A DNA stretch of 64,000 nucleotides from Octopus vulgaris (GCA_951406725.2 OX597818.1:113646001-113710000); one strand, 5' to 3'; counted from the stretch's first letter, positions 1 through 52,545 are shown. Program-made: numbers and translations. The notes: a model not told the origin generated them from the sequence alone.

Positions 1-328
1 ACTCAAAATATGAGTATATGTATATTTTTCAGTTCTATATTTAAGAGATAAGGAATTATGTACATTATTTACATAATTTTACATTTGACGGATATTTGTT
101 CTCATCTTGTTTGTTGTTAACACAATGTTTCAGCTGATATACCCTCCAGCCATCATCAAGTTAAAATAATAGACAGAGAATACCACTGGAAAATACAAAA
201 ACTAAAAGCAACACATATGTTAGGACACAATAACCTCCTAAGCAGACTGAGTGCAGATATGGGAATCGGTATTAAGGATAGGAGGATATTAGATTTATAA
301 GCCTTAAAATTCACTCCTTAGTTGCCCA

Positions 329-560
329 TGGATATATGGCTTAGTGGTTAAGAGCATGGGCTACTAACACTAAGATTCCAAGTTCGATTCCAGACAGTGA
401 CCTGAATAATAATAATAATAATATTGAAAAATACATTAGGAATGAGAACCCAGGTTTGAAATTTCCCCAAGACACCTGATGAAGGCTATATCAGCTGAAA
501 CGTTAACGACAAACAAGATGAGGACAAATATCCGTCAAATGTAAATAATGTATATATTTA
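329..560 (+). mobile_element. tRNA-headed short element ending in a Penelope-type hammerhead-bearing repeat
   Basis: A box TGGCTTAGTGG (337-347), B box GTTCGATTCC (382-391), (AAT)n, then ACAC-CTGATGA...GAAACGTT (472-504). The 3' part recurs inverted at about 27-160 and direct at 8255-8340. Confidence 0.6.
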
Positions 561-1353
561 TTAACATTTAGCAGAAGTAACAGAGTGACTCAAGGTCCGA
601 GAGTTTTGTGCATTGATAGATAAGTGCATGAGAGTCTCAGACCTTGAGTCACTCTGTTACTTCCACTAAATGTTAATAAAACTAAATATGTATATGTATG
701 TATTTATTATACATATATACACACTAAAAAGTTTGATAATACAAACAGGATAGTAGAACTTGAAACATGAATATTTTTTATTTAATCAATAGAAGTTACA
801 AAGTTATTCAATGGCAGAGAGTTTAGTACATTCCCACTTCATTACTTTCTAACTTTTGCCAATTAAATAAATAATATGTACATTTATGCCAGAGCGCTTG
901 ACTGGCACCAATGCCGGTGGCACGTAAATAGTACATTGCCAGTGCCGCCTGACTGGCACCCATAAAAAGCACCCACTACACTCTCGGAGTGATTAGCGTT
1001 AAGAAGGGCATTCAGCTGTAGAAATCTTGTCAAATCAGATTGGAGCCTGGTGCAGCTTCCTGGCTTGCCAGTTCTCAGTCAAACCCATGTCAGCATGGAA
1101 AGCAGATGTTAAACAACGATGATGATGATGATGATGATATATATTATGTAGACAAGCAAAAACTCAGTAGAGTTACATTTCTTAATAAGTTTGACTCAGC
1201 TGCAACATGGTTTCAAATTTTGTGGGTGCATAATGGATTGGAGACAAATTCAAAAGTTTGTTGAAGCAAGATCAGACGAATGCAGCTGAACCTTGGATAT
1301 TTATTAAGCAAATTACATCCATCGTTGCTCGTTGATTGAGAGCCTTCTGGTAT

Positions 1354-2276
1354 TTAGGAATTAAAATTTGGTTTGTTAGTCCAAGAATTAACATTGCCTG
1401 CTTGTTGAGGAGGCCACTGGTTGTTATTGGGAAGAAATCCTTGTGTCTGAGCAAAAGATGATTGTGAATTTTGAGTCCAGTTTGGTGCATTTGGAGGTGG
1501 GTTGTTTGGGATTGTGGAAGATGGTTGGCTTGTGGAATTTGAGGAGGAGCTATTCAAAGTATTTGGTGGGGGAACGCTAAAAGGATTTGAAGACCAATTG
1601 GTAGGCCAATTTGAAGACCAGGCATTAGGATTAATTTGTGATGAGCCCTGAGAGATATTTTGTGCTGAAATGTTTGGAGTATTTTGAGACCAACTATTAG
1701 GATTATTTTGGGTCCAACTATTCAGTGCAGGCCAGTTATTAGGGGTCATTTGAGTTGAACTGTTTGGGGTATTTTGGAATGAAGTGTTAGGATTATTTTG
1801 GGACCAATTGTTTGGAACATTCGAGGACCAGTTATTTGGGGTATTCTGAGACCAGTTATTTGGAGTACTTTGAGACCAACTGTTTAAGGTATTCTGAGAC
1901 CAATTATTTGGGGTATTCTGAGACCAACTATTTGGGGTATTCTGAGACCAACTGTTTGGAGTACCTTGAGGCCAATTGTTTGGAGTATTTGGCCATTTGT
2001 TAGGAGCATTTGTAGAAGGCCAGTTATTGGTCCCAGTTTGGCCCCAACTGTTTGCAGAATTTGAGGGCCACTGGTTAGGCGGATTTGTGGACCAATTGTT
2101 AGATGGATTTAGAGGTCTGTTGCCAAAGGTGTTTGGAAACCTATTGCTAGAGGCTTGAAAAGATTGAGGTTTTGGATCTTTTGGTGGCCAACTGGTATAA
2201 GCACTAGAATGCCAATTGTTGGATTGTTGTGGCCTGGATTTTTGTTCATTTCGGTGGCCTTGATGACTGACACCCT
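1354..2276 (-). CDS. NAF1: NAF1 exon 9 (N/S/P/Q/W-rich repeat C-terminus)
   Basis: Poly-T acceptor tttttcag|AG GGT; about 306 codons open to TAA at 1356-1354; candidate AATAAA at 1305-1300 on the minus strand. Confidence 0.85.
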
Positions 2277-5200
2277 CTGAAAAAAAAACAAAATAATAAT
2301 AATAATGGTACACATTAGTACAAAGCTACAAATCTTTAAAGAGTGGCTTAACTGACTGAACCAACCCCAATACCGGAGCTATTTAATCAATTCCAGCACA
2401 TGTGCTACTGTACTAAATCCAGCTCATAAGTGTTTCATTAACCTGAGAAGAATATAAAGGCAAGAATGCATTAAGGCAGGATTTGTAACCAGAAAATAGA
2501 GGGACACAATTGAAAAGTTAGAGGTTTCATCAGATGTCCTACCATTTGTTCCACTACACACTCGACCTCTTCACTGTCTGTGACCCACTTTTAGAATAGG
2601 TACACCATCACCTTGCATGTCATAAAAGGTGACCAAACGGGCATCAGCTGTAAAGCGTTGCATGAGAAAAACCTGTCAATCACCATGCCAACAAGAAAAG
2701 GCAGATAAAAAAACGATGGTAGGTTATCTCCCCCCACACAGATGCAAACTCTTAACCATCCATCCATCCAGAACTTCTCTTCCTATTCTCTCTTATAATT
2801 TTGTACTTTCAAAACTACGTCCTAATACCGTCTTACCACAATGTTTATCTCACTTTCCAGTTACTCCCATCCACCCTTACATCACACACAGAATACACAG
2901 TAGCCATGCATCGTCTCTACTGCAAGACACCCATTCTAGTCTGTCCCACTCAAAACTTGCCAGTGCTTCCTGACTGGCTCCCGTTCCAGTGGCACATGAA
3001 AAGCACCCACTACATTCTCGGAGTGGTTGGCATTAGGAAGGTCATCCAGCTGTAGAAACATGGCCAGATCAGATTGGAGCCTGGTACGGCCTCCTGGCTT
3101 GCCAGTCCTCCATCAAACTGTCCAACCCATGCCAGCATGGAAAGCAGACATTAAACGATGATGATGATGATGATTACATCCCCCATAATGTAGCGGTTTA
3201 ACAAAAGGGACCAATAAAATAAGTACAATGGAGTCAATTTGCTTGGCTAAAACCTTCAAAGCGGTGCCCTAGTATGGGCACAGTCAAATGACTGAAACAA
3301 TCAAAAGATAATGGATATGTCTAACATGGCTTATAGTCCAAAGAGGATAACAACATACAGATAGCATTTATAAGGACAAAAGAAATAAAATTGTACCAGA
3401 TTTCTTCTTGTAGTTTCTACTATTCTTCTGCGTCACTGGAGATTTATTTCTGCAAAAAAGATTTTTAAAAATATCAATAACTGATTTCAAAGAGAAAAAA
3501 GAAAATATGATGGCTGTGTGGTAAGAAGCTTCTTTTCCAACCACATGGTTCCATGTTCAGTCCCACTGCATGGTACCTTGGGCAAGTGTCTTCTACTACA
3601 GCCCCAGGCCAACCAAAGCCTTGTAAGTGGATCTGATAGATGGAAACTGAAAGAAGCCCATCGTGTGTGTGTATATATATAAAAGTGCACGAGTGGCTGT
3701 GTGGTAAGCCGCTTGCTTACCAACCACATGTTTCCGGGTACAGTCCCACTGTGTGGCACCTTGGGCAAGTGTCTTCTACTATCGCCCCAGGCCAACCAAA
3801 GCCTTGTAAGTGGATACGGTATATGAAAACTGAAAGAAGCCCACACAATCGCTTGTCAACCGATGTTGGTGTGCTTACATCCATGTAACTTGGCAGTTCG
3901 GCAAAAGAGACCAATAGAATAAGTACTAGGCTTACAAAGAATAAGTCCTAGGGTCGGTTTGTTCATATAAAGGTGTTGCTCCAGCATGGTCGCAGTCAAA
4001 AGACTGAAACAAGTAAAAGAGTATACTTTACACAGAACACAGGCCTGGCTGTGTAGTTAAGAGGCTTGCTTTGCAACCTCATAGCTTTGAGTTCAATCCA
4101 GTTGTGTGATATCTAGGGCAAGTATCTTCTACTATATAGCCCTTGGTTGACCGATGCCTTGTGAGTGATTCTGTATACAGAAACTGAATGGAAGACCATC
4201 ATTTGTGTGTGTGCATGTGTGTTTGGTTTGGTTTGGTTTATCTCTCGTCACCATTTAACTGGTGTTTGTTTTGGTCTCCAAAACTTAGTAGAATGGCAAG
4301 GGACTCCGATAAGGGACCACACTTGTACTGGGGCTGATTTGTTTGACTATGCCCTTCGAGGCAGTGCCCCAGCATGGCCGCGGTCCACTGACTGAAGCAA
4401 GAGAAAGATCAAAGCTAAAATACATGTATGTCTTCTAGATTTTAGGATGGTTATATCGCATCCCTATATTGTCATCAGAGGGAATTAAAAACGCTGACAT
4501 CATGAAGAGTATTCAACCAGAAAATACAGCCTCACAAAATCCCATCCTACTCATGCCAGCATAGAAAAGTGGATACAAAAATGATATTTTTTTGTTTCAG
4601 TCATTTGACTGCAACCATGCTGGAGCACCGCCTTTTAATCAAACAAAGCGGTCACCCCACGCCCCGTACTGTTTCTACTTCGCAGATTTTCACCTACCGT
4701 GGCGTGTTTGCAATGTAATACTCGCCACAGTCGAGGGAGTTACTGTACCTCGAGTGTAACCCTCATGGGCATTTAGCGCAAAGGGAGGTAACCCATTACA
4801 TAGAGGGACGTAATTCCAGTTAAACCATTCGACAAATACAGACGAGGACTAGACTAAGTGATATACCGTATTTTAACGTGTATAAGCAACACTCATTTTG
4901 GGGGCTTAAAATTTGGAAAAAAGGTTTTGTAAGGGATTATAATATTATCCATATATAAGAAACTCCCATATTTTTTTAACCTGATTTTTTGACAAAAAAG
5001 GGTTCCTTATGTTAAAATATGGAAATTGTTATGATTAACTAAAAATTCTTAAAACAATGCCCCAGCATGGCCGCAGTCCAATGTCTGAAGTCAATAAATA
5101 GAACAAGAACAAAATAACAAATTCCTTACTTCAAATAGAATGGATTGTTGGAATCTTTCTTTCGGCGTGCCTGGTTTTGATCGTTCTTGTTCGCATCATC

Positions 5201-8200
5201 ACTTCCAGAATTGTCATCATGGGGTTTCTTTTTATTCTTCTTCATCAAACGTTCTTGTTCATCGTCAGAATAATCTAAGAACTAAATGTGAAGCATACAA
5301 AACAAGATTTAAGAGAAAAATAAAAGAGAGAAGAAATGGCAAAGAAATACAAGACCTCATAGAATTAACAAAAGATTACAGATAACATCAGTTGGACCAG
5401 ACACAAGAATCACAAAGTTTGGAAATTCTTAATTTCGTAACAATTTTTACAGGAACCACCGAAAGACAGAGCTTGAATATTACAATAACGAGTAACATTA
5501 AGCACAGGATATTAATCTGAACAATCACCATTCGAGTATGGTCGATGCCAGTGCCGCCAGACTGGTCCTGTGCCAGGACATGTAAAAAGCACCATTCGAA
5601 TGTGGTCACTGCCAGTGCTGCCTGAGTGGCTCCCATGACTGGGGCATGTAAAAAGCACCATTCGAGTGTGGTCGTTGCTAGTGTCGCCTCTCTGGCTCCC
5701 ATGCCGGTGGAACATATAAAGCACCATTCAAGCATGGTCAATGCCAATACCGCCTGACTGGAACCCATGCCTGGGGCACGTAAAAAGCACCCACTATATT
5801 ATCGGAGTGGTTGGTATTAGGAAGAGCATCCAGCTATAGAAACTTAGGCAGATCAGATCGGAGCCTGGTGCAGCCTTCTGGCTTGTCAGTCAAACCATGT
5901 CCTCAGTCAAACCATGTCCTCTTGACGACCATTGTCAGGTACAGGCATGGCTGCGTAATAAAAGGAGCTCATTGAGATGAGCTGCTGGATTACTTTGTCA
6001 AATGTGATGCTTATTTATTCATGTTGTTTGGAATTAATCATGGATTATATCATAGCTTCAAGATTTTGATGATGTAATTGTTAAGTTTTAGAATGACATT
6101 GTAGGGTTGGTGTGAGAGGTTGAATCTGACCAATTTGAAAATAAAACAAATAGAATATTGGGTCAGATATGGCAAAAATGAGTTAGACCTGTATTGTAGT
6201 TCAAAGGGCAAGCCTTGTTACATTTTGTGCAACACTGAATCTCCCTGAGAACTATATTAAGGGTTCACTTATCTGTGGTGTATTCAACCACTGGCACATT
6301 AACTTCATGAACAGGCTTTCCATTGATTGGATCAACTGGAAACCTTGTTGTTATAACTGATGGAGAGCTTTAGCAATTAAACCAGTCATATCCAGCCAAA
6401 ATATTCTGCCTGTTTTATATTCAAACTGGCCAGATCCAACCTCTTGCACCAACCCTTTGATATCATTCTAAATATTAGCAGTTACCTCATCAAAATCTCA
6501 AAGCTACAAAATAATGCAAGCTTAATTGAAGCTATGTGAATAAAGAAGCAATCTATTTGACAGAATAATGTGACCGCTAAAGGGTTAAAGTTATACTTAG
6601 ACCATTTTGAATGTTAGCAGGCCAGAAATGTTAACATGCCACACAAAATGCTTAGACATTTCTTCCGGCTTTACACTTTGAGTTCAAATTCTGCCAAGGT
6701 GAACTTTGCCTTTCATCCTGTCAGAGACGAACAATGGGGTTGATATAATGAACTGGTATGCCTCCTAAAATTCAAACCCTTGGACTACACCAGGTGCAAT
6801 TACTTGGGACCTGAATAAACAGCTTTGTCCGAGTTGATTTAATGGGTTTTAACTGGCCATTTGACCATGGAGTAGAAATACCAGGCATTATGAAACTATT
6901 TAACTAACGAAAGATTTTGAGTGACTCAGCTACAGTAAAATACATTTACAATAATTAACAAAGAGTCTTAATAAGATCTTTTATGACACAATAAAAGGTG
7001 ATTTGCACCAATCAGTTTATATTTAGGCTTAAGGAATAAAGAAAAAAACCAATAACAAGAAAAGCATCTAACCTTTTCTGGAGGTTCCAAGTCATGTTCC
7101 CAGGATGCATCAGAACCCTTTTGTCTAGAGAGAGAGAGGGAAAAAAACAGGGGAGAATCACAAAGTGAATTATTTCTTGAAAGGAAAAAAAAGATATCAG
7201 CCAAACAATTTAAGACTACAATGAATTATTAACTCAAAATTAAAAAGAAAAAAAGCACATTTGAGCGAAGTCATTGCCAGTGCCGCTGGACTGGCTCCTG
7301 TGCAGGTGACATGTAAAAAACACCATTTGAGCGTGGCTGTTGCCAGTAGCGCCTGACTGGCCCTCGTGCTAGTAGGGTGACAAGAGCACCATCGAGCACC
7401 ATCCGAGCGTGATCATTGTCAGAGTGGCTAACTGGCTTCCATGCCGGTGGCACTTAAAAGGGCACCATTCGAGCGTGATCGTTACCAGTGTAGCCTTACT
7501 GGCACCCATGCCGGTGGCATGTGTAAAAAGATTCGAGCGAGATCGTTGCCAGTACCACTCTCGGAGTGGTTGGCATTAGGAAGGGCATCCAGCTGTAGAA
7601 ACTCTGCCAGATCAAGATTGGAGCCTGGTGCAGCCATCTGGTTCGCCAGCCCTCAGTCAAAATCGTTCAGCCCATGCTAGCATGGAAAGCGGACGTTAAA
7701 CGATGATGATGATGATGATGTATGTCTCTTCAGCATCTTGTCCATTTGGCTTTATGCCCGTTCAGCTTGTCCTTCGGCAAAATTGCATTCGGCATCCCAT
7801 CCGTGTACCTATGATTTAGGTGAGGGGCATGGAACCATTTACTGACCCCCTAACAATTCCATTTATTGATCTCTCTCGGTCAACTTCTATTTGGTGTACT
7901 AGACACATTTCAAAACATTCTTTCACGTATATTCCACCTACAGCTTCAGAAACTAGTCTCTTCAGAAAGTTTTCTACTATAAATCAGGACAGTGATTTCT
8001 AAAACTGCAAAATATCCAGTATTTATCCATGTGGAAGATTTTGCTGTTTTGTAAACTTTTCTAATCCATGCCAGCAGGGAAAAGGTGGGCATAAAAGCAA
8101 TCTTGATAACCTCTTAAACCAATCTGTCTACTTCTTACCACGCTGACCACTGCTTCTCTTTGTAGGTATAACATGTAAGATATCTTTTGGAACAACCACT

Positions 8201-11200
8201 TGTCTTTCAGTTCTATATTCAAGCGATGAGGAATTATGTACATTATTTACATTAATGAAGGCTGGAGGGTATATCAGCCGAAACGCTGTGTTAACAACAA
8301 ACAAGATGAGGACAAATATCCATCAAATGTAAATAATGAACCACTTGTCTGAATACCAGAGAATTCCACTCCAATGTCTCCATCTTGACTAATAACAGCA
8401 CCAACCTAACTTACTTCACAAACCTAACACAATGAAACTCCTATTCAACAAGTTTTGGAAAAAATTCCTTTTATTTTGTTACATTCCGAGTCAAAAGTTA
8501 CATAAAAGCAGAAACTTACTTCATTAAGTCCTGTACAAACACATAGTTTGTATACTTTATCTCTTTAGGGGCATAGTAAATTTCTGTGCCAACTTTCAAA
8601 CCCTTTTCTTCGATATCTTGAGTGGTGTTAAACCGAACAGAATACAAAGGGTTCCGTACAGGACCAAATATTTCAAACACCTGTTAGAAATTAGAAAAAA
8701 GAAAAGGTAAAAGAAAATTACAGGTAAACTGCTTAATCAACATTTCACTGCTCCAACATGAAAACCAATTTAGCCCTGCAAGAATGGCAAAAATGGATGG
8801 GAATTCATTTTATTGGTTGCTTAGTTGACACACTTCATTGTATCATCATTTTCATACACTGTATTAAAAGGAAAAAAAGTTTTAACAAGTGAAACAGTGT
8901 AATCCAGAACAAACAGGCAATGTTCTACGTTTACAGATTTCACATGATTTTCCTTCAACAAAGGGCCCAGCCCCAAAACGTCAGACATCATCTCTTCCAC
9001 ATGGCAAACTAACTTTTTTCTGTTTTAACCGTTTATATTCATTTTTTTTTTCATTCTATTTTTCATATTTACACCTATTTCAGTCATTAAACTGCAGCCT
9101 TGCTGAAGAATTTTGGTCAAAAGAATCAACTCCAGAACATATTTTTTTTAAGCCTGGTATTGATTTCATCAGTCTCTTTTCCCAAATTTCTAAGTTAATG
9201 AGGACATAAACACATCAACACCAAATGTCAAGCAGTAGTGGAGAACAAACATACATATATACACAACAGGGTTCTTTCAGTTTCCATCTACCAAATCCAC
9301 TCACAAGGCTTTGATCAGCCTGAGGCTATAGTAGAAGACATTTGCCCAAGTTTCCACGCAGTGGGACTGAACCTGGAACTATGTGGTGGGGAAGCAAACT
9401 TCATACCACACAGCCAAGCCGACACCTATATTCCTTTGTTTCAATCATTTGATTTAATAGTTAAATGAAGGTTACACTGTCATCAAGGGATTCTGAACTA
9501 ACTCAAAGGAAATCAAATTTTGGGATTACAGTGTAACCTTCATTTAACTAAGGTATCTTCAGCCTGATGAGTAGCTAGTGGAATATTCCTCTTTGAGTAA
9601 TTATTATTTTCAAGGTTCTACTAGCTAGGAAACATATGCAGCCTGGATCTTACCGGCTCCATTCCCTCAATTTAGATTGTGTGTGTGCATTTCTACCGAA
9701 TTCACTGTTTGACAAATTGATTAGTTTATTTCCCTATGACTTAGCAGTTTGGCAAAAGTGCCCAATAGGGTAAGTACCTGTCTTAAATAGAAACAATGTA
9801 CTGAAGTTGGTTTGTTTCACTAAGGCTGTGCTCCAGCATGGCTACAGTCCAATGACTGAAACAAGTAGAAAAGATTAATGATATAAAAAAAAACCAAAAA
9901 CCTAAACAACATCCAGAAATTTGTAAAAGAGTCATTTCTAGAATCTTCCTACCTGTCCCAAGGAGGTTCGGTCCTCTAGAAACAATATGCTGTCATCGTT
10001 GAGTGGAGAAGTTTCCGAATCAAGGGACTGGATTACAACTGGAAAACAATTCAAGTAGAAATGAGACACCGAAAGATATACAGAAAAATGGTTCCATACT
10101 CTATATTTTGCCAACCTGTCTTGGCAAAAGGAACCAATAGTATAAGGAGCAGACTTGAAGAGAAACTTAACTGTTGGGGTCAATGTCTTCAACAGAAACC
10201 CTTCAAAGTGGTGCCCCAGCATGGACTCAGTCCAATGATTGAAGGGAACAAAAGATTCTTCCACTTTTCCACAAGAAAAACAGAACCAATCTCTTCAAAA
10301 GTATAAATTTCTTTTTTTTTTTTTGAGATTTAGATATTTTTAAAAAGAACTTCGAATAAAAACACTAATTATTTTTATATTTTTTCAAATTTACTTTATC
10401 CATATTGGTGTTGAAGAATATTGTTAAAATTCATTGGCTAAGTTGAGCACAGTTTAAATAAACCCTTGATTCAGAATGAAATGATTTGTTTTAAGCATCC
10501 TTGATAAGAATCAACTTTGAACTGTGACAAGAGCTAAGAAGGATCCTTTAATGAGACCAATCAATCTGCATGAAATAGGTGGTAAATCTCCTTCAAACCA
10601 CACCTTAGCATCTTACGAAAGAATAGACTGGATATTGTAGTGTCTGACAAAAGTCAGGATGGTCATGGTTTGAATGCTTTTGGTCATAGTTCCACTGAAT
10701 AAGTGCTAAATCACAGCCACCATATTTTCTGACATACAAATCATTGTAATGTAAACATTCGAACATCATTACTGTATCTTTCTAAATCCTGCTGCATTTC
10801 ATGCAGGAATTTTGGTCCTCCAAAGTCATCTTGATGTATAAGTCATCCTACCTGTTTTGGCTGTAAATTTTGGTCTGAAGAATTCCACTTATATGCCAGA
10901 AAATATGGCAAACATTAATAACCTTTATAAAGTAGATAATATCTGTTTACTTTATATGTCTACATAAACCCTTTCATTACCATCCTGGCTGAAACCAGCT
11001 CTGGCTATGAGTACAAATGTCTTGTTTTCATAAGTTCTGAATTAAAATCTTCCACTAAACCTTAGTCACAATTTATGTTCCTAATACTAGCTTAATGATA
11101 ACTAAGTTATTTTACTAAATTCTTTGTTACATTTAAAGTAATTGAAAGAAACACAGAGGATCTCAAAATAAATACAGTAACGAAAGGGTTAACATACATA

Positions 11201-14200
11201 TCTCTCTTGTCCAAATTTTCTTCCAGTGCTTTTCATCTCCAAAAATTTTCTAAGCTGAGTCATGCTCAACTCTTGTTATAATAAATATTACAGAACTCAA
11301 TGAAGCACAAACAAATTTCAAATAATTCTAGGTTTTGCCCGTTCCCCTCCTATGCTGTATCTCATTTATCAAATTTCTGTCAGGCGAAAAGCTCTAATTA
11401 AACCATAATACTTACCAAGTGTGTCTATGATAGTGGAAATCAACCCAACGCATACAAGCTCCACATTGTCATCAGCAGTTATCTTCAGTTCTTCAATAGG
11501 AGGAAGATCCTTTAAAGTAAAAAGTATGTAAGTGATACAGACCCTATATACCAAAAATCTGAACCCTACTCATGGCTACATTCATCATTTGTCATCTGTT
11601 TACCATGCTGGCATGGGTGGGACGGTTTGACAGGAGCTTGTAAGCCAGGGAGCTGCATCCGGTTCCAGTCATGTTTTGGCAAGGGTTTTACTTTACAGAG
11701 TGCCCTGGATACTTTTCACATGGTGCCAGCACATACCAACATTCAATATAACACAGTCAGTAATGCAGCAAACTGGCAGAATTGTTACCAAACTTAGGTA
11801 AAAGCTTAGCAGCATTTTGCCTGTCCTAACGTTCCGAGTTCAAATTTCGCCAAGGTCTACTTTGCTGTTTGTTTCTACAGTTGGATATATTAGCAGTGAA
11901 AATAGTGGGGAGATTCTTTAGCATTTAAGCCAGCCTTAAATGGTCCAGGAATTCTATTGGTTTTATGTTCAAACTGACCAGATCTACTCTTTCACATCTA
12001 CCCTACAATGTCCTTCTAAATATAAACTATCACATTTTTGAAATCCTGAAGTTATGAGATAATGAAGGATTAATTCAAAATAATGTGAATACAGGAGGAA
12101 GAAGTGTGACTGCAATAGTCTACAAGATCTCCAAGATTGTGAGGAAAGCAAAGGCAACCAGACTGGAGGTCTGTTCCATACACTCTTGCAAAGGAGTGGT
12201 CTGCTACAAGCACCAAGTGTCAAATGGTACAAGTAAAAAGCCAAGCAACTGATTAAGTCTGATACCAATTTCTATACCAAATGAATGTGTAGAATGACAA
12301 GCAAATGACACCCATAGCACCACTTTGGTTAATAGCTTAGGAGTGAAACCTGAGAAAGGAAGCTGTACAAAAGCCTCTTCTACGTAAACAAGTATCATCA
12401 TCATCGTTTAACGTCTGTTTTCCATGCTAGCATGAGTTGGACGGTTCGACCGGGGTCTGGGAAGCCAGGAGACTGCACCAGGCTTCAGTTGATCTGGCAG
12501 TGTTTCTACAGCTGGATGCCCTTCCTAATGCCAACCACTCCATGAGTGTAGTGGGTGCTTTTTACGTGCCACCAGCACAGGTGCCAGGGGAGGCTGGCAA
12601 CGGCCATGATCGGTTGGTGCTTTTTATGTGCCACCGGCATGGAAGCCAGTCAAGGCAGCGCTGGCATCGGCCATGTTCAGATGGTGCCTTTTACGTGCCA
12701 CCAGCACAGGTATAAATACAGATATATACTAGAGGTATGGTGTATATCTACACCAGATTATCTTTTGCTGATGTCTTTTGTGGAGGAGAAAGCCAATGTC
12801 ATCATCATTTGACTTCCATGTTCCATGCTAGTCTGGGTGGGATAGTACCACAAGAGCTGGCCAGGCCAAAGCCTGCACCAGACTTCTGTAACTGTTTTGG
12901 CAAGATTTTTACAGCTGGACGCCCTTCCTAACACTAACCACTCAGCAGAGGGACTTAGTGTGTTTTATGTGACACACGCACAGATGAGATGAGTTGTGCT
13001 TTTTACACAGCACTTTTTTTAATGTGTTTAAAACAAAAATCCTTATGGTATTTATTCCACCCTGTGATGCACAGGCATCTTTTATCAACCAATGATTGAC
13101 TAAGAAATCTATAACCAAGTTCACAAAAATCCATCCTGTAGTTGCAGGCATGGCTGCGGGTTTAAGAAGTTCATTTTGCAACCACATGCACCTTGGGCAG
13201 TTGTGTCTTCTATCATAGCCCCAGGTTGACCAATGCCTTGTGAGAGAATTCAGCAGACAGAAAGTGTGTGGAAGTTGTCGTGTGTCACCATTTTAATGTT
13301 CACTTTTTCATGCTTGCACAGGATGGACAGAGTTTACTGAGGCAGAATTTCCGTGTCCATCTTACTGCTGACCCTCACTGGTTTCCAAGCAAATATAAAC
13401 TCCATAACCAGACCAAGTTCATACAGAATATTGGAAATGAAAGAGGAAGCTTGTATAACAGTGTCAATCATGTAACGTATATACAACGGGCTTCTTTCAG
13501 TTTCTGTCTACTAAATCCAGTCAGAAGGCTTTAGTCACTTGCTCAAGGTGTCATGCAGTGGGACTGAACCCAGAACTATGTGGCTGAAAAGCAAACTTAC
13601 CACACAACCACGCCTGCACCTATCATCATCATTTAACGTCCACTTTCCATGCCGGCATGGGTTAGACAGTTTGAGTGACAAGCTGGGGAGCTGCACCAGG
13701 TTCCAGTCTGATTTGGTATGGTTTCAACAGCTGAGTGTCCTTCCTAATGCCAACCACTCCAAGAGTGTAATGGGTGGTTTTCTTACATGCCACCAGCACA
13801 GGTGTCATTCACATAACACTGGCAACGACCACAACTACGATTTCACTGGTGATGTCTGTCTGTAAGTTTGTGTTCCCACCACTACACAAATTGGTTTTTG
13901 TACATCCCCATAATTTAGTGATTCAGCAAAAAAGACTGGTAGAACAAACACCATCATCATCATCGTTTAACGTCTGCTTTCCATGCTGGCATGGGTTGGA
14001 CAGTTTGACTGAGGACTGGCAAGCCAAGAGGCTGTACCAGGCTCAAATCTGATCTGGCAAGATTTCTACAGCTGGATGCCCTTCCTAACTTAAAGGTCCT
14101 GGGTTTGATTTGTTCAACTAAACTGTTCAAGGTGGTGCCCCAGCATGGCTGCAGTCTAAAACAAGTAAAAGTAAAAGAAATTTTGAAATAAATATTTCTA

Positions 14201-16719: not shown

Positions 16720-17205
16720 GTTGGGAAAACGCTAACAAAGACTTTTTTAATCAACAAGAGACTTTACAAAGTTAAGAAATATCCATGTGAACCACTAAAC
16801 ACTTGCTTCTCTTTTTCAAGGTAGCAGAATCGTACAAAAATAAGTTTAATTTGAATTTTGTTTATCAAACGTGTCGGTTAAAAATCAAACAAGTATGTCG
16901 TTTCTTAACGTTTTTTTTTTCTTTTTAGCTATCCGGATATATTTCAAAACTGCAATTAAATTTACCTTTTAAGCAGTGATCTTAGAGAGCAGGATAGTAT
17001 AATTACAGAACCATTCCGGGACCCAACGAAACATACGACACGTGCTTCCTCGCGGGGGAATCAATTCCAGTGATAAGGGGGAATAACTCTAATGTTATAT
17101 AATTAACGCATGCGCACTATCCTTTTGACCCCCGCATGGTGACTCTGTGAGGAGATTGTATATTAGCAATAGGGTTTAAGGTCGTCAACGGAATTCTTTA
17201 GGAAA
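16720..17205. promoter_or_regulatory. Bidirectional promoter between NAF1 and TIMM23
   Basis: Divergent ATGs separated by 486 bp; repeat-free and CpG-retaining; E-box CACGTG at 17039-17044; NRF1-like CGCATGCGCA at 17107-17116. Confidence 0.8.
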
Positions 17206-17287
17206 ATGGACAGCGGTGGAGATCCTTCGTCGAAAAGAGCATTCTTCAATCCATATTCCAGTTCTGATCCAACTATGGCAGCTGGAG
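17206..17287 (+). CDS. TIMM23: TIMM23 exon 1
   Basis: aaaATGG start; MDSGGDPSSKRAFFNPYSSSDPTMAAG; G|gtattt donor. Confidence 0.85.
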
Positions 17288-17553
17288 GTATTTATGATTT
17301 ATTATATTCTCTGTTAAACCAATTAGTTACTGTCACGTACTTGATAACTTGACCTTTAATTACTGGAACAATTCTCATAATCGATTATACAAGCGATTTT
17401 CTGTTTTACCTATGAATTTAAATATAACAAATAATGTGACAGAGACACCTAATTTACAAACTTTGCAGTTCTAATTCAACATATTTTAAAAATCGCCTTT
17501 CTATTGGTAATCTATTATGTGTTGTCTGTAGATTAATCGCTTTGTACATTGTG

Positions 17554-17585
<32 letters not shown>

Positions 17586-30170: not shown

Positions 30171-30453
30171 TATATACATACATCATCATTTAACGTCCGC
30201 TTTCCATGCTAGCATGGGTTGGACGATTTGACTGAGGACTGGCGAACCAGATGGCTGTGCCAGGCTCCAATCTGCATATATATATATATATATATTGATA
30301 GAAATGGTAAGACAACAAATGAATGAAAGAGACCTCGATATTATGTAAATAGAGGAATTTATCTGTAAATGTAATATGTGACAATTATTCGGTAGCCATG
30401 ATAAAACTCCGACTTTTGGATGGCGATGTGGAAATCCACGCCGCCATCTCTTC

Positions 30454-30512
30454 ATAACTGAAGAGATGGCGGTGTGGATTTCCACCTCAGCATCCGAAAC
30501 TCGGAGTTTTAT
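30454..30512 (+). ncRNA. Type I hammerhead-ribozyme-like motif in a 170-bp foldback
   Basis: ATAA-CTGAAGA-GATG...CATC-C-GAAA-CTC g GAG-T-T-TTAT; stems I-III can all form. Confidence 0.55.
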
Positions 30513-30554
30513 CATGGCTACTGAATAATTGTCACGCATTATATATATATAGAC

Positions 30555-32263: not shown

Positions 32264-32411
32264 ATGACGAGGCTTACAGAAGTCTTAAGTCGGGGCCGAC
32301 GACCCGGTTATCATGGGAAGTTCACCAATTACAAAGAAGTGTTTCCCTATAAACTGCCTTTGCCTCCGATCCTTAAGAACAGTGTATCGAATAAGAAAGA
32401 CAAATCGAAAG
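32264..32411 (+). CDS. CHCHD1: CHCHD1 exon 1
   Basis: [15 protein letters not shown]...KKDKSK, G|gtaaga; an in-frame TGA upstream fixes this ATG as the start. Confidence 0.87.
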
Positions 32412-38400: not shown

Positions 38401-41400
38401 ATTATGACAGTGTGTGTGTGTGTGTGTGTGCATGTTCAACAGTAAGCATCATGAGGGAAAAGCTGGGCATAAGAGGCATCAGATGTGGTGTGCAAGTGAG
38501 ACAACTGCACTGGTATGGTCATGTGTTGTGTATTATGGACAAGGACAGCTGTGTAAAGAAGTGCCAAACTCTAATTGTGGAGGGAAGCTGTGGTAGAGGT
38601 AGACCCAAGAAGACATGGAATGAGGTGATGAAGCATGACCTTTGAACTTTGAGCCTCACAGAGGCAATGGATAGTGATCAAGACCTTTGGTGGTATTCTG
38701 TGCTTGAGAAAACCCATCAAGCCAAGTGAAATTGTAGACATGGCTGTTGTTAGTGTCACTTAACTGGCACCTATGCTGGTGGCATGTAAAAAGCACCTTT
38801 TGTGCATTGGGCATCACGAGGCAAAGTGGCTGAGCTATTTTTGAATGTTCAGCCTCACAGAGGCAATGACCAAGACCTATAACATTATGTTGTGCTTGAG
38901 AAAAAGACCCACCAAGCTGAGCAAAACTGTGACAGATACCAGTGTCATGCAAATGGCACTTGTGCAGGTGGCATGTAAAAGCACCCATTACATTCTCAGG
39001 GTGGTTGGTGTTAGGAAAAGCATCTAGCTGTAGAAACCTTGCCAGATCAGACTGGAGTTTGGTGCAGCCTTCCGGCTTGTCAGCCCTGGTCAAACCATCC
39101 AACCCATGCCAGCATAGACAACAGACATTAAATGATGATGATGGTGATGATGATATATCAGGGTATTAGGAAGGGTATCCAGCCATAAAAATAGACAATG
39201 AAGCCTGGTGCGGCCCTTAACCTTGTCAGTTCCTGTCAAACCATGCCAGCAGGGAAAACAGGCATTAATTGATAACGATGATGATTATGTACACACACAC
39301 ACACACATGTGGCATAATCAACATCATTTTAATGTCCATTTTTGGATGGGATTTTGTTATTACAATTTTCCTATCGCTGGTGCCTGGTCACCAATCCTTA
39401 AGTAAGATAATATATCTCCATGTTAAGGCGGCGAGCTGGCAGAAACTTTAACACGCCAAGTGAAATGCTTAGCAGTATTTCGTCTGCCGCTATGTTCTGA
39501 GTTCAAATTCCGCCGAGGTCGACTTTGCCTTTCATCCTTTCGGGGTCGATAAATTAAGTATCAGTTACGCACAGGGGTCGATATAATCGACTTAATCTGT
39601 TTGTCTGTCCTTGTTTCTCCTCTCTGTGTTTAGCCCCTTGTGGGTAGTAAAGAAATAGGTGTTTTTTCTCTCTTTACGTTCTGAGTTCAAATTCCACCAA
39701 GGTCGACTTTGCCTTCCATCTTTTCAGGGTTGATAAATTAAGTACCAGTTGTGTACAGGGGTTGATCTAATTGACTGGCCTCCTCTCCCAAAATTTTGAG
39801 CCTTGTGCTTAGAGTAGAAAAGATTAAATCTTCATGTGGAGGCATGTTTTTACAGGAAAATGGAAATGGAGTCCCTGCTTGCATGACAAGGACATTCATT
39901 TACCAGAATCACACAAGGAGCCAATAAAACACACACATAAACTCAAAGATACACACACGCACACACACACACAAACTCCAAAGCTATACACATATATACA
40001 TTCAGAAATGGCTCCTTCCATCTTCTTCCAAATTCACTCACAAAACTTTGGTTGTCTTAAGAGTTTAGTAGAAGACACTTCCGCAAGGTGCCACACCATG
40101 GGATTGAACCTAGAACCATGTGGTTCGAAAGTAAACTGCTTAACTACACAGCCATGCCTTCACCTATTTATGTATTTTTTTATCTTTTATTTTTACTTGT
40201 TTCAGTCATTAGAATACGGCCATGCTGGGGCAATTCCTTGAAGATTTATTAGTCGAATAAACTATCCCCCGTACTTGTTTATTTTTTAAAAACCTGGTAC
40301 TTATTCTATCAGTCTCTTTTGCCAAACTGCTAAGTTATGGAGACAAACACACCAAGGCCAGTTATCAGGTGGTGGTAGTGGTGGAGGACAAACACACACA
40401 CACACATATACGATAAGCTTCTTTCGGTTTCCTTTACCAAATCCACTCAAGGCTTTGGCTGAGCTCAGGCTATAGTAGAAGACACTTGCCCAAGGTGCTG
40501 TGCAGTGGGACTGAACCTGGAACCGTTTAGCTGAAAAGCAGACTTCTTACCACAGAGCCACACCTACGCATGTGTGGGTGTGAGTGTTTGTAGGAAAAGG
40601 TTTGTCTGGATGTATTTCATGTGTTTAGGACTCTATAAACGTATGACCATGTGTGAGCATTAGTTTGGCTGTGTTTAAACTCTTATGTATTTTTGTGAGT
40701 ATGTTTATGTGAAGAACACTTGTGTCTGTAGTTATGTACCTATAAAACTCTGTACGTGCGTGTGTGTATGTATGTGTGTGTGTGTGTTTGCTTGCCAGTC
40801 TCAAATCATTCTGCATGTGTCTGTGCAGATTTACGTGTGTGTAAGCGTGTGGAGTGCTCTTTTGCCGATGTTTTGATGGGCGTAGAAGCAAATGTGGGCA
40901 GACAGTGTGACGAGGCTAACTTTTGTCCCCCTTGTGCCCCCATCGCCCCCGCTGCCCTCCCTCCCCCTCCTCCACACAAATAGACACCACCACCTCCTCC
41001 TCCTCTTCCACCCACATTTTACTTAGCTTGTTGATTGTTGTCTGATACTTACTTTGATGAATAATACTAATATTGGATAGAACAACTCCTTTATCACTCT
41101 CCTTCCTTCCCCATCATCTTCACCACACACACACACACACACACACATTCACACACACACACTCTCTCTCTCTCTCTCTCTCTCTCACATTATACACCAG
41201 ACTATATTGTACTGTAAACATCATATACAAAAACAGTCAGTCACTCCTACATGTATATGTTGTACTCACATTCAAATCATTGTTTCAGGCGTTTGACTGT
41301 GGCCATGCTGGAGCACAACCTTTTAGTCGATGAAATCGATCCCAGGACTTGTTCTTTGTAATTCCTAATACTTATTCTATTGTTCTCTTTTAGCGAACTG

Positions 41401-41480
41401 CTAAGTTACGGGGATGTAGACACACAAATATATACCTATGTATGTATATATATATACACACACACACACAAATATATACC

Positions 41481-41524
<44 letters not shown>

Positions 41525-44500
41525 CACACACACACAAATATATACCTATGTAAATATATATACACACACGATGGGCTTCTTTCAGTGTCCATCTACCAAA
41601 TCCACTCACAAGGCTTTGGTTGGCCTGAGGCTATAGTAGAAGACACTTGCCAATGATGCCATGCTGTGGGAATGAACCCAGAACCATGTGATTGGTAAGC
41701 AAGCTTCTTACCACACAGCCACACCTATTCATAATTCCATATAACTACTTATACGCATGCAATTAATGCACTCATTTATAATATATACTTGTGAAGAAGC
41801 ATATATGTAATTACTTTACTTGCTAGAAATAGCAGCCAAATTTCCTTCAAAACACATACACATGTACATCATAATCATTTAACACCAGTTTTCCAGGCTG
41901 GCATGGTTGGATGGTTTGGCAGGAGTTGGCCAACCAGGGAGCTATGCCCGGTTCCATTGTCTGTTTTAGCATAGCTTCTGTGACTCGATGTCCTTCCTAA
42001 AGCCAGTTGGAGTGCACTGAGTGTCTTTTATGCGGTGCCAGCACATCGTGGCGCTGGTGCATACATTCATGACAGGCTCCCACCAAGTTTCTATCTACCA
42101 GACTCCACATAAAAGACACAAAGTGCTACAAAGTGAAATTGAACCTGGAACAATTTTGTTTCGAAGCCAACATCTTAACCCCATAGCTAAGTTCTACACC
42201 CATCACTGAACTTCATTTCTCCTTGCTAAAATGAAATGAGTATCAGCTGGTGTTATTATTGATGTCTATGTGTAGTGTGGAGTAAACTGTGTCATAGTTC
42301 ATCAGCAACTAGGTTTACTGGGTGCTTTTTACATGGCAGCGGCACAGGTGCCTTTTCTGTGGCACCATCACAGGTGCCTTTTCTGTGACAGCATCACAGG
42401 TTCTTTTTCTGTGGCACCATCACGACCGCTTTTTCTGTGGCACCAGCACAACTGCTTTTTCTGTGGCACCAGCATGGGTGCCTTTTCTGTAGCACCATCA
42501 TGACTGCTTTTTCTGTGGCACAAGCACAGGTGCCTTTTCTGTGGCACCATCACGACAGCTTTTTCTGTGGCACCAACACAACTGCTTTTTTTACATGGCA
42601 TCAAAAATAAATTGTCAACTGGTAGGGCTGAATGATATTGACTAAACTGCTCTCCTCAGCATTAATGGCCTTCTGTCTCAATCAAAAAGCCTTCTTAAGG
42701 ATGTAATTTTAATAAAACATAATTCCTTAGTATTTTACATAATGTATGCTGGTGAATACTTTCCTTATCATCATCACCATTGTTTTAGTGACCACCTTTC
42801 CTTGCTTGCATGGGTCAGACAGAATTTGTCGAGGCAGATTTTTATGCAGGTGGATGTTGTTCCTGTCACCAATCCTCACTTGTTTCCAAGTAAGCTAATA
42901 GTTTCCCATGACCTGGCAGGTTTCCACTCTGTATCAGAAATTTAGGGGCAGTGCTTGCAAGATGGCGACACTCGTTGACAACTCTTACATAAAGTCAAAG
43001 CAAGAAGACAGTAATACACACACACAACCCAGAAACACGTCCACAATTAATCGAAGACTGTTTGATTTCGTTAGTTTTCTTTTGCCTATGTGAGTTACAA
43101 ATAATGTTATCTGTCGAGTAATATATGTATTAAAAAAGAATAAGCGGTCTTTGGCTGCTATTTCTAAATTTTTGGTATGTGGTTAAGTAACTTGTTGCTT
43201 AACTCTAATTATATATGTGTGTGTGTGTGTGACAGGCTTCTTTCAGTTTCCATCTACGAAATGCACTGACAAGGCTTTGGTCAGCCCAAGGCTATAGTAG
43301 AAGACACTTGCCCAAGGTGCCACGCAGTGGGACTAAACCCGGAACTATGTGGTTGGGAAGTAAGCTTCGTGTCACATAGCCATGCCTGCACCAATATATA
43401 TATGCAAAGCAGGGTTCTTTCAATCTCCATCTTCCAAATCCACTCACAAGGCTTTGGTCAGCCCATGGCTAAATAGAAGGCACCTAATCAAGGTGCCACG
43501 CAGTGGGACTGAGCCAGGAACCCTGTGGTTGGTAAGCAAGTTTCTTACCACACTGTCACACCTGCACTTTTACTTATAAACATTGTTTTTCTCTTCTGTA
43601 GTGGCACCCTGCCTGGAGGAAATTGGATTGTTGCTGACTTGCTGGAAATCTTCAGATTTTTCCATGAAAGGATGCGAGAAGGAAGTAAAGGCTTTTAACG
43701 AATGCTATGCAGCGTCTCTGGTATGTACTCTCTCCACTAATATCTTTCGATAAAAACTCCGCTATCCATTTTCCTTCTGGAAGATTTTCAAGAAATAACA
43801 TCACTACCACCATCATCACACCCCCATAACCATCATCATCATCTCTTTCATCGTTATTATCCAAACTTTCTTTCTATATTTATCCTACACACTTTACACT
43901 GTACCAACTGTGCAGAAGAACAGCAACTGATGTATGGAACTGGTGCTAAAAAAGCTTCTACAGATAGATACCATTTTCCAAATCTTCTTCATGAAGGCAA
44001 ATAACAAAAAGAAAAATCTAATTAGAATTTTTAACCGTGGCCTATGCCAGTGCAGCATAACCAGCCCATTTAAGAGTACCCTTCAATCATTGGGCAATAA
44101 TCTGCGCTTGCAAAGACCTGTTCAGGCAAGTGAAATCGTTGTGGTTGATAACAGTACTCCCTGATTGGCACCCATGCCAGTGGCACGTAAAATGCACCAT
44201 TCAAGCGTGGTCAATGCCACTGCCACCTGACTGGTCCCGTGCCAATGGCACGTAAAAAGCAACATTCAAGTGTGGTTGTTGCCAGTACCGCCTGACTGGC
44301 TCCCATTCTGGTGGCATGTAAAAAGCACCATTCAAGCGTGGTCGAAGCCAATACTGCCCGACTGGCCCACGTGCCGGTGGCACATAAAAAGCACCCACTA
44401 TACTCTCACAGTAGTTGGCGTTAGGAAGGGCATCCAGCTGTAGAAACATTGCCAGATCAGATTGGAGCCTGGTGCAGCCATCTGGCTTACCAGCCCTCAG

Positions 44501-45937
44501 TCAAACTGTCCAACCCATGCCAGCATGAAAAGCAGACATTAAACAATGATGATGATGTTGTTGTAGTAGAGGAAGAATGCCAAGCTAGTCTTAATCAGTA
44601 AGCCTTTGATGAGAGGTGTTCCAACCATGACCATCCTGTCTTTTATTCCAACAGTGTGTGTTTCTAGGATTCCGTTATGAATTACCATCTTCCTTCTCTC
44701 CAAACAGTGTTTCCATTGATTTCTCTGGTATTTCTAACCTCTTTCATTCACAGTAATTTCATAAGTGTTATTGTTTAACTCCAAGGGAACTCTACTCAGA
44801 TTAATGATCAAAGGCATTCCAACCATGGCCAACCCATCCTCTTAGGAATGTCTCAGATTATACAATATGATGTGGCTGGCATGGCTGTGAGGTAATGGAG
44901 TTCGCTTTGTTACTAAGTGGCTCCAGGTTCAATCCCACTTTGTAGTACCTTGGATGAGTGTCTTCTACCTAAGCCCTGGGCCAACCAAAGCTTTTGAGTG
45001 GATTTCATAGATAGAAACTGAAAGAAGCTTGTTGCAAGCATATGTGTGTGTGTGTGTCTTTCTCTACACTGACAACAAACTTGGGCTGTGCTTGGCCCTC
45101 ACAGGGGCAATGACTGGTGACGGAGGCCTTTGGCAATGTGCTGTGCTTCAGAAGCCCCATCAAGCCAAGTCCACCCATGCTGGTGGCATGTAAAGAACAT
45201 ATTTTGAACATTGGGTTCCTTTCAAGTGTTGGGCCCCATGGAGGCAAAGTGGCTGAGTTCCTTTCGAGCATTGGGCCTCACGGAGGCAATGACCAAGACC
45301 TTTGGGTTTATGTCATGCTTGAGAAGAACCCCCATCAAGCCAAGCAAAATTGCAGTCATGGCAGATACCAGTGTCATGCAAGCTGGCACATAAACACACC
45401 CTGGTGTAACACAAATGGCACCCATGCTGGTGGCACATAAAAGCACCCATTACACTCTTGGAGTGGTTGGCGTTAGGAGTGGCACCCAGCTGTAGAAAAC
45501 CATGCCAAATCAGACTGAAGTCTGGTGCAGCCTTCCAGCGTGCCATCCCAGTCAATCCATCCAACCCATGCTAGCATGGACAATGGACGTTAAATGATGA
45601 TGATGATAAAGCTGATGTCTGGAACATAAATTAGCAAGAAATTTTGATTGAAGGCTTTAGTTTGACCTTTTACTATTTAAACCATATCTGTTGCAAATAT
45701 TCTCCCCATTTTCTACTCCCAAGGGTCTTCTGGTTCTTGGTTGCAAGAAACCACTAACTTCCAGCTTCCTTCACTACTGTTGTTGTTGCTGGTGTTGTTA
45801 CAAACACTTCGAAGTCCCTTCCAAATCTTTTATGTTTCTTACAGAATCAACCTCCTCAAACTGGAAGCAGACTTTCCGCAGCAGAAGTGAACAAATTACT
45901 CAAGAGGTTTCCTCAGCCTCCACACTCATACAAGTAG
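32264..45937 (+). CDS. CHCHD1: CHCHD1 / mitoribosomal small subunit protein mS37 (whole gene span, 3 coding exons, 119 aa)
   Basis: Join of 32264-32411, 43602-43720, 45845-45937 = 360 nt. Basic N-terminus ...LPPILKNSV, twin CX9C motif ([13 protein letters not shown]...[11 protein letters not shown]) and C-terminal VNKLLKRFP (human LNKLLQRFP). Confidence 0.92.
32587..32827. mobile_element. CpG-rich palindromic MITE inserted in a SINE
   Basis: Long TIRs GGTACTACTTGAGAACAGTGGTCCCGGTGCGCGCACTCGCG... / ...CGCGAGTGCGCGCACCGGGACCACTGTTCTCAAGTAGTACC with an A-rich spacer; SINE sequence continues on both sides. Confidence 0.8.
33235..33576 (+). mobile_element. Decayed CR1-type LINE 3' end
   Basis: [18 protein letters not shown]...FK and (TTA)n tail. 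Confidence 0.78.
33726..34584 (-). mobile_element. Internally deleted mariner transposon
   Basis: TIRs CGAGGTGGTATCA..., TA on both sides; transposase N-terminus [36 protein letters not shown]. Confidence 0.88.
38430..39155 (+). mobile_element. RTE LINE 3' fragment
   Basis: [21 protein letters not shown]...[12 protein letters not shown], then the same 3' UTR and tail. Confidence 0.8.
42322..42600 (+). repeat. 26-bp minisatellite, about 10 copies
   Basis: Unit approx. TTTTCTGTGGCACCATCACAGGTGCC. Confidence 0.9.
43602..43720 (+). CDS. CHCHD1: CHCHD1 exon 2 (CHCH domain)
   Basis: ctgtag|TG GCA CCC TGC...TCT CTG|gtatgt; twin CX9C motif. Confidence 0.94.
45845..45937 (+). CDS. CHCHD1: CHCHD1 exon 3
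   Basis: cttacag|[33 protein letters not shown]. Confidence 0.92.
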   Translation, partial: NQPPQTGSRLSAAEVNKLLKRFPQPPHSYK

Positions 45938-50738: not shown

Positions 50739-50794
<56 letters not shown>

Positions 50795-50837: not shown

Positions 50838-50869
<32 letters not shown>

Positions 50870-51163
50870 GGATATGTGTGTGTGTGTGTGTATCTTCGCC
50901 ATGATTGATCGGTAGCTACTAAACCTTTTTTGTTTTCTCTCCCTGCTTATTTCTGTGTTCCTTTTTGTTGAAGAGCATAGACTCGAAATGTAAAAGACTT
51001 TCTCACTTCCCGAGCCTTAAATTTCATACATCTGTTTCTTGTTTACACACCTGTATTTGTCTTTTGTTTTATTTTTTTGGGGGTTTTTTTTCTTTTGTAA
51101 ATTTCAGCTATGGATATATATACATGTGCGTATATATATATATAGTGATGGTTTGTTGCCAAT

Positions 51164-51485
51164 TTAATGTGGCAATCCCAGGAAAGGGAAGAATGCTATT
51201 GCTATTTAGCCCCAGGAAACACCGTTTCCAGTTGGCTATGTGATACAAGCGTTCTGTGTCCTTAAGTTTTCAAACAGGGAAGATAAGCACCTCCACCCAG
51301 CAAAGCCAGCATCCAGAGACTTGTTTTTGAGTCATTGCTCTTCATCATCTGGAGTAGCTTATCTCCTTCGCCTGTTTGAAAACTTGAGGACACAGAACGC
51401 TTGTGTCACATAGCCAACTGGAAACGGTGTTTCCTGGGGCTAAATATCAGTAGCATTTTCCCCTTTCCTGGGACTGCTACATTAA
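51164..51485. repeat. Inverted repeat (arms about 135 bp) with a hammerhead-like spacer
   Basis: TTAATGTGGCAATCCCAGG...CTCCA / TGGAG...CCTGGGACTGCTACATTAA. Confidence 0.85.
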
Positions 51486-51791
51486 GTCTACTCAGCTGGC
51501 AAAAATGAGTAGTACCTGTATTTCAAAGGGCCAGTCTTCTCACGCTGAATCTCCTTGAGAAATATGTGAAGGAGTACTGTATCTGTGGAGTGCTCAGCCA
51601 CTTGCACGTTAATCTCACGAGCAAGCTGTTCCGTTGATTGGACCAGCTGGAACTCTCGTCGTCGTAAGTGATGGAGTGTCAGTATACACACACACACAAA
51701 TATATAATAACAATAATAGGGAGTATAACTCCAAACTTATAGGGAAAAATTCAATTTAGTATTAAATCAAATTTCACAATATAAATATATA

Positions 51792-52545
51792 AAATATAAA
51801 TTAGAGATAAAACCACTATTATGCAACTCAAACAGTGATAGACATAAACCAAAACATAAATAACAAATAAAATATATAATTTTATAAAACATAACTAGAT
51901 CTCAAAAAGTATAAAAATGAATGATCAATATATAAGTAAAAAACTATGTACGTTTCATGGCTACAATTAAATTAGAATTACAATTATATTTAAATTCAAT
52001 TTAAAATTATAGTCAATCTTCAAGTTAACGATAATAGTTAAATAAATAATCAAATAGAGTTAAACAATATTTATTTAAAAAATAAATAAGATAATAATTT
52101 TTCTTATAGAAAAAACTCCATTAACTAAATTTGAAACTTAAAACATTAGGATTATTTCCTACAACACATTTATTATGTTAAATATTTAATATTTTTTTTT
52201 ACCTTAAATTCAACATAATAAATGTGTTGTAGGAAATAATATAGTTAATGGAGTTTTTTCTATAAGAAAATTATTTTATTTATTTTCAAAATAAATATTG
52301 TTTAACTCTATTTGCTTATTTATTTAACTATTATCATTAACCTGAAGATTGACTATAATTTTAAATTGAATTAAAATTTAAACGTACGTAGTTTTTTTTT
52401 TACTTACATATTGCTCATTCATTTTTATACTTTTTGAGATCTAGTTATATGTTTTATAAAATTATATATTTTATTTGTTATTTATGTTTTGGTTTATGTC
52501 TACCACTGAGTTGCATAATAGTGGTTTTATCTCTAATTTATATTT
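51792..52545. repeat. AT-rich long inverted repeat (arms about 385 and 335 bp), Penelope-type
   Basis: 51792-52178 is the reverse complement of 52212-52545 with indels; each arm carries a hammerhead-like core. Confidence 0.85.

Follow-up and report, generated by a model that had tools for sequence, protein, structure and literature searches.

The question raised by this 64-kb stretch of the Octopus vulgaris genome (GCA_951406725.2, OX597818.1:113646001-113710000; hereafter the window, with positions counted from its first base) is whether the hammerhead-like motifs strewn over it form genuine ribozyme families, and which elements brought them there. An earlier reading made from the sequence alone (the sequence-only reading) had listed such motifs in several unrelated contexts and had ascribed them to Penelope-like elements (PLEs) and retrozymes. 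We conclude that the sites are very probably decayed, mostly 5'-truncated end-repeat (pLTR) insertions of several PLE families, each bearing a type I hammerhead of its own, for which cutting is predicted solely in the dimer or with help from the element's protein. The families are named by their sites (A, 472; B, 9556; C, 30076; D, 30454; E, 51312; F, 51940; G, 50961); adjacent enzyme genes link A, C and G to PLEs, the link is likely for D, and we infer it for B, E and F. The hammerhead copies and element parts of the window are as follows.

20..160, minus strand: inverted partial copy of family A, with a hammerhead remnant at 119-160 (C3 changed, stem I truncated) and an extension of the 3' tail
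157..300, plus strand: C-terminal end and stop codon of a PLE GIY-YIG open reading frame (ORF), putatively of Poseidon type; 68% identity to the endonuclease end of locus L018
330..404, plus strand: tRNA-like segment in the end repeat of family A, with an A-box-like motif at 337-347 and a B-box-like motif at 382-391; (AAT)n follows to about 422
471..552, plus strand: family A minimal hammerhead and tail (core 476-482, GAAA 497-500, predicted cut after 504), with 7 nt deleted from loop II and stem I' harmed
8253..8338, plus strand: family A fragment, 5'-truncated within the core, U16.1 changed; in an intron of the NAF1-like gene, antisense
9458..9672, plus strand: fold-back of family B (9458-9550) and its hammerhead, with the core at 9564-9570, GAAA at 9629-9632 and a U16.1-to-C change; in an intron of the NAF1-like gene, antisense
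29575..29843, plus strand: degenerate GIY-YIG-type endonuclease end, 5' of family C
30076..30143, plus strand: family C hammerhead (core 30084-30090, G8 changed to C, stem I of 8 bp)
30366..30547, both strands: family D fold-back pair; of all window copies, the plus one here (core 30458-30464, predicted to be cut after 30508) alone has all core letters, and the inversion junction shortens its stem I to 4 bp
50895..51060, plus strand: family G copy with the core at 50965-50971; U6 is typical of the family, and C3 is changed in this copy
51164..51485, both strands: family E inverted pair; hammerhead at 51312-51353 on the minus arm, C3 deleted and G12 changed
51779..52558, both strands: family F inverted pair; one hammerhead on the minus strand at 51940-52030, with C3 changed, and one on the plus strand at 52339-52393, with a deletion spanning stem II and the GAAA box

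Hammerhead families in the window and in the genome

Every motif listed by the sequence-only reading was found in its place, and the contexts it had held to be unrelated proved to be seven different dispersed repeat families. Motifs were called with family profiles, counting core-covering copies; there are 11 in the window versus none in reversed control DNA, and ten of the 11 carry a core lesion or truncation. Searched with Rfam, the window gave no match at the gathering score and no hammerhead among the 150 listed of 181 weak matches; strict descriptors run on the window alone gave one chance-like match with one descriptor and one match with another. The window copies are each too decayed for strict descriptors, and family alignments were therefore needed.

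Each window site was searched against its own genome, and 30 loci per family were aligned, these being the best matches to the window copy rather than a random draw. The type I layout that had been proposed for all families is kept in the majority rows (stem I-CTGANGA-stem II-GAAA-palindrome-UH-stem I', with CTGTNGA in G), and the intact consensus core on which that proposal hung is there: CTGANGA, GAAA and UH are restored in the majority rows of A to F, with all 11 core letters being those of the majority in 12, 19, 15, 27, 27 and 27 of 30 copies, respectively. The stem III strands measure 4-9 nt and are all self-complementary or nearly so (ACGT in A and G, ACATATGT in B, ACCATTGGT in C, ACTCGGAGT in D, ACTAGT in E, and ACGTACGT in F). 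A G-C pair at 10.1-11.1 is present in C, D and G, and also in A, where it is CpG-decayed in many copies. A position of nearly all motifs in or beside inverted duplications, as also claimed, was seen at five of the eight sites (A at 472, B, D, E, F) and not at A (8255), C and G.

For the scale across the genome (2.8 Gb), an unselected sample of 120 stretches of 10 kb at fixed grid positions (1.2 Mb) was searched with a hammerhead descriptor. The sample yielded 52 motifs, 44 of them with exact CTGANGA (most of which is demanded by the descriptor), versus 0-2 matches in each of eight local shuffles and one in reversed DNA; one tandem array supplies seven of the 52. The resulting density of about 43 per Mb extrapolates to about 1.2 x 10^5 motifs per genome (bootstrap 79,000-170,000). 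Grouping gave 31 clusters of motifs and, when the linking was loosened, 26; these 26 have 24 different stem III strands, and a rough richness estimate arrives at about 80 families. Many families at high density had been claimed for the window, and this is borne out as a property of the genome as a whole: at equal threshold, only two single copies in the window pass the descriptor (30458, plus; 52023, minus), that is two in 64 kb versus 52 in 1.2 Mb, and the window is typical of the genome for intact motifs. Families A-G number 11 copies in the window versus 32 in 600 kb, a higher count that is inflated because these families were chosen from the window. The energies of paired stem III strands (median -8.9 kcal/mol for homodimers versus -1.4 kcal/mol for heterodimers; 46 of 253 mixed pairs are as strong as the weaker homodimer) largely reflect self-complementarity and give no evidence of function.

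Link to Penelope-like elements

Coding sequence was searched for in the flanks of the family loci (mostly 1.5 kb). In family A, the end of a GIY-YIG frame lies directly upstream of the hammerhead in the window (157-300) and at five other loci (L009, L018, L023, L029, L262), and a reverse transcriptase (RT; RVT_1) is present as well at L018; 13 of 20 RT-bearing loci carry the same-strand hammerhead downstream, and in ten of the 20 an inverted copy lies upstream. Family C has a GIY-YIG-type endonuclease end upstream on the same strand at 15 of 30 loci and in the window (29575-29843), the flanks reaching the endonuclease end only. Family G stands behind a PLE RT at L192 and downstream of RT in six of 20 RT-bearing loci (flanks ending at 1.5 kb), and both of the young copies examined, on different chromosomes (L371 and L372, the latter from mid-RT onward), have an unbroken frame of RT, Cys-rich linker and GIY-YIG, followed by the hammerhead. 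Family D, with degenerate RT and endonuclease upstream at two loci (L283, L105), probably stands behind PLE coding sequence. The young element at L371 (52-3684 and 4192) is a PLE of Neptune type whose frame runs unbroken through 1,211 codons between stops, and many equal-scoring RT copies suggest recent activity.

The copies show 5' truncation, inverted partial copies and fixed 3' ends or a tail. Inverted hammerhead copies lie upstream at 15, 7, 3, 10, 4, 2 and 1 of 30 loci (A to G), and are thus rare in F and G, counting hammerhead-containing ones only; 3' ends are sharp in A (end points at about +116 and at +121 to +125), D, F and G, and 5' ends are scattered. Element lengths could not be defined by chaining the homology upstream of the copies, which gave too much noise in DNA so rich in repeats. 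One-sided tails, inverted 5' copies and a preference for microsatellites are traits of PLEs (PMC8557442), and the inverted pairs of B, E and F and the sharp 3' ends of F would fit PLE insertion of this kind. Among the fragments of family F, nine of 30 tail fragments start at one point, 88 nt past the predicted cut site, as a short sub-element or as an artefact of AT-rich matching.

These features can be joined in one mechanism. The RT-GIY-YIG protein would nick AT-rich or microsatellite DNA, and reverse transcription would begin 3' of the hammerhead, from one fixed point or two, and mostly end early or fold back, leaving a short hammerhead-bearing stub, often with an inverted partner and with a tail on one arm only; the inserted copies would then decay neutrally. 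The template would likely be uncut RNA, because the copies span the predicted cut site and their 5' ends are not gathered there; a pile-up at this site was looked for and not found, with 5'-end mapping blurred by some bases through BLAST end trimming. The family hammerheads are predicted to self-cleave after H17, and the stem III palindromes would pair two RNAs of one family and so favour same-family dimers. From published work, PLE hammerheads cut weakly, as dimers (PMC4209133), and in an anole PLE, reverse transcription starts internally at two points on a mainly uncut RNA template and the ribozyme needs protein (PMC11167929).

Several observations weigh against this account. The PLE origin given by the sequence-only reading, which stands for A, C and G and is likely for D, found no such footing in B, E and F: no convincing ORF link was seen in their flanks (B, one interrupted locus; E, one weak match; F, none). 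The upstream 1.5 kb common to copies of family F is AT-rich with many stops in the three sense frames, and contains no ORF in these frames, the antisense frames being covered by PLE profiles only. Pair 10.1-11.1 is mismatched in B, E and F, and these families, together with G for its U6 core, may cut poorly or not at all. Covariation in the stems is weak, with one double change among nine sequences of the G clade, equalled by 63 of 500 shuffles; one A-U/U-A swap was seen among three related motifs, and across families the stem pairing is required by the descriptor itself. The clade names Poseidon and Neptune, finally, are given by linker motifs and not by a tree.

Family A has, between stop codon and hammerhead, a tRNA-like segment with A- and B-box-like motifs. 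In 14 of the 20 RT-bearing loci, a match resembling an A or B box lies downstream of RT, and the tRNA-like head therefore belongs to the autonomous pLTR; by the same count, the short form is not a short interspersed element (SINE) independent of the autonomous element and alike to it in the 3' tail alone. The head is reached by 36 copies (68 of 70 copies were mapped); for 25 of these the stop falls within 15 nt around tRNA position 1, and five run on towards the ORF. Short copies have the A and B boxes and the start at tRNA position 1 by which tRNA-derived SINEs are recognized, and the hammerhead and tail part is free of runs of four T. This clustering of starts and the missing T run fit initiation by polymerase III that would give SINE-like passengers; a stop of the RT at a short palindrome at tRNA position 1 is an alternative for the clustering. 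The Rfam tRNA model reached only 14.6 bits, below threshold, in L017, and ARAGORN calls on family A loci were weak and inconsistent. No tRNA-headed pLTR was found in a literature search that covered few subscription papers and no supplements.

Cleavage, decay and rival explanations

In family G, the canonical A at position 6 of the core is replaced by U6, in 29 of 30 and in 23 of 26 copies, and position 7 varies. U6 is also found in the young, intact L371 and L372, and is therefore inherited and not a product of decay. A relative of family G with canonical A6 (L230:5999-6045, minus strand) shows a C-G to G-C swap in stem I and represents a natural control for the U6 core. In the same literature search, with its few subscription papers and no supplements, no hammerhead A6U was found, and the A6U report found concerns twister ribozymes.

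It is possible, if doubtful, that the PLE RNA retains the hammerhead fold for protein binding or dimerisation, with cleavage dispensable at least in G, B, E and F. The dominance of U6 in family G next to a variable position 7, and in a young intact element, would agree with this, as would the natural variant A6C, which is known to lower activity in Mg2+ (PMC3088659, PMC7151607), the core mutants of the anole PLE, with insertion in vitro unaffected (PMC11167929), and the copy 5' ends, which are not piled up at the cut site. Against it stand the 44 of 52 descriptor matches with exact CTGANGA across unrelated families (the descriptor demanding most of this motif) and the lower variation of the core when all variants are counted, those of subfamilies included (2.0% versus 5.4% in the rest; copies not independent, edges included), which suggests core constraint in the source lineages.

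Retrozymes, the second origin offered by the sequence-only reading, do not account for the window as tandem elements: no window copy is a tandem retrozyme, with same-strand neighbours at 0-2 of 30 loci per family. One was found elsewhere in the genome (L211:2100-4750; G000:C1:20002100-20004750), a young element of near-identical units of about 359 bp inserted in (TA)n, with five hammerheads forward and two inverted on the 5' side. We regard it as unlikely that B, E and F are non-autonomous retrozymes which replicate via small circles and borrow PLE enzymes, with the window holding their monomeric fragments. The families without ORF link, the young L211 element with its inverted 5' copies, and the description of monomeric retrozyme copies and a PLE origin (10.64898/2026.07.22.740005) would be explained in this way; however, a second same-strand copy within 1 kb is present at 0 of 30 (B), 1 of 30 (E) and 0 of 30 (F) loci, and the common upstream of family F exceeds 1.5 kb, versus about 170-400 nt for the described animal retrozymes (PMC7229834).

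The sequence-only reading had further placed core-mutated copies inside housekeeping-gene introns. The host genes of the window are as follows.

1354..16722, minus strand: NAF1-like gene (Gar1/Naf1 domain, PF04410, E 8e-13), ends taken from open frames, not transcripts; its antisense strand holds the family A copy at 8253 and the family B copy
17208..26875, plus strand: gene of the TIM17/22/23 family (PF02466), which we take to be TIM23-like; without hammerhead copy
32264..45937, plus strand: gene with a CHCH domain (PF06747), presumably CHCHD1-like; without hammerhead copy

Introns hold two of the 11 copies, each on the antisense strand of the NAF1-like gene, and the intergenic copies are equally broken; this part of the earlier reading is not supported. 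That host selection inactivated the cores of copies in housekeeping-gene introns is highly improbable: both intronic copies are changed at U16.1, as it would predict, but both are antisense to the host gene, eight of the nine non-intronic copies are broken too, and rare substitutions, the class expected from post-insertion decay, show no excess in the core (1.8% versus 2.5% at other positions, p=0.065). The window copies look like fossils broken by ordinary decay. No sign of an effect of the hammerhead copies on neighbouring genes was seen in the sequence analysis of the window. Chance matches in a repeat-rich genome, which would account for the missing Rfam match and for the failure of most window copies with strict descriptors, are scarcely credible and are ruled out by the 52 matches versus 0-2 per shuffle, by the family majority rows with restored core and stems, and by the fixed position of the motifs behind PLE ORFs.

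Further features of the window were noted. The NAF1-like and TIM23-like genes are arranged head-to-head with start codons (16722, 17208) less than 500 bp apart, and probably share a promoter; the C-terminal exon of the NAF1-like gene (1354-2325, minus strand) encodes a Trp/Asn-rich octapeptide repeat with a 24-nt unit. A long inverted repeat at 30960-31730, resembling a miniature inverted-repeat transposable element (MITE), has arms of about 95% complementarity, is GC-rich with runs of G/C, and showed no hammerhead; a near-perfect MITE-like inverted repeat of about 240 bp (32588-32826) lies in the first intron of the CHCH-domain gene, and a tandem array with a 26-nt unit (42297-42634) in an intron of the same gene. 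Two more imperfect hairpins (566-680 and 771-877) lie right 3' of the family A copy.

Comparison with known systems

The elements are of a known kind, in a new host group and at notable scale. Heterogeneous, genome-wide hammerhead families tied to PLEs have been published before (PMC4209133); for cephalopods, our literature search (few subscription papers, no supplements) found no hammerhead survey, only 235 Rfam matches in giant squid (PMC6962438). Rfam misses the present motifs entirely, with 0 matches in a window of 11 copies. The published activity of PLE hammerheads is low and was dispensable for insertion in vitro, and the dozens of families in one genome provide a natural series for a parallel comparison of cleavage, with contrasts of minimal and long palindromic stem III, paired and mismatched 10.1-11.1, A6 and U6, and young intact and dead copies. 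We tentatively envisage a wider picture: this genome may be among the richest known hammerhead reservoirs (about 10^5 motifs, perhaps at least 80 families), in which a stem III palindrome of its own for each family (24 strands in 26 clusters) would limit RNA pairing and cutting to the same family, an active Neptune-type element would be spreading with a U6 core, and a Poseidon-type element would give rise to SINE-like passengers from a captured promoter of tRNA type within its end repeat.

The metazoan PLE hammerheads (PMC4209133) are alike in the type I layout, an extra nucleotide after A9 (here in A and G), a palindromic stem III/15.2-16.2, and many families per genome, mostly solo or as opposite-strand pairs 100-700 bp apart, in pLTRs. 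The scale differs, with about 43 motifs per Mb here versus about 9,000 motifs in Xenopus and 4,000 in coelacanth, counts that are not strictly comparable for their different descriptors; further differences are stem III strands that measure 6-12 nt or exceed the 4-nt minimum in 22 of 26 clusters, a 1x1 mismatch at 10.1-11.1 in seven of 26 clusters, and one abundant family with U6. For comparison, more than 6,000 motifs in 16 families are reported in coral, and up to 120,000 copies of two families only in axolotl (PMC7229834, 10.64898/2026.07.22.740005).

The anole Poseidon PAc (PMC11167929) shares with family A an RT followed by GIY-YIG, a pLTR with a minimal hammerhead, a pair of neighbouring 3' end points and AT-rich targets. 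It differs from family A, in which a tRNA-like segment with A and B boxes and an (AAT)n stretch stand between stop codon and hammerhead, and many short copies of which start at the first base of the tRNA-like segment. The Neptune/Nematis PLEs (PMC8557442) are like the partner of family G in the Cys-rich linker between RT and GIY-YIG and the hammerhead in the end repeat; unlike these, G has a U6 core in a young element with unbroken frame, its clade being assigned by motifs and not by a tree. Animal retrozymes of the non-LTR type (LTR, long terminal repeat; PMC7229834, 10.64898/2026.07.22.740005) are alike in being non-coding, hammerhead-bearing and probably mobilised by PLEs, and in the SINE-like hammerhead repeats of Schistosoma (reviewed in PMC6765202) a hammerhead is joined to a polymerase III promoter, an arrangement that family A appears to share. 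The window copies differ from retrozymes in that they form no tandem arrays and in that the head of family A is part of an autonomous PLE.

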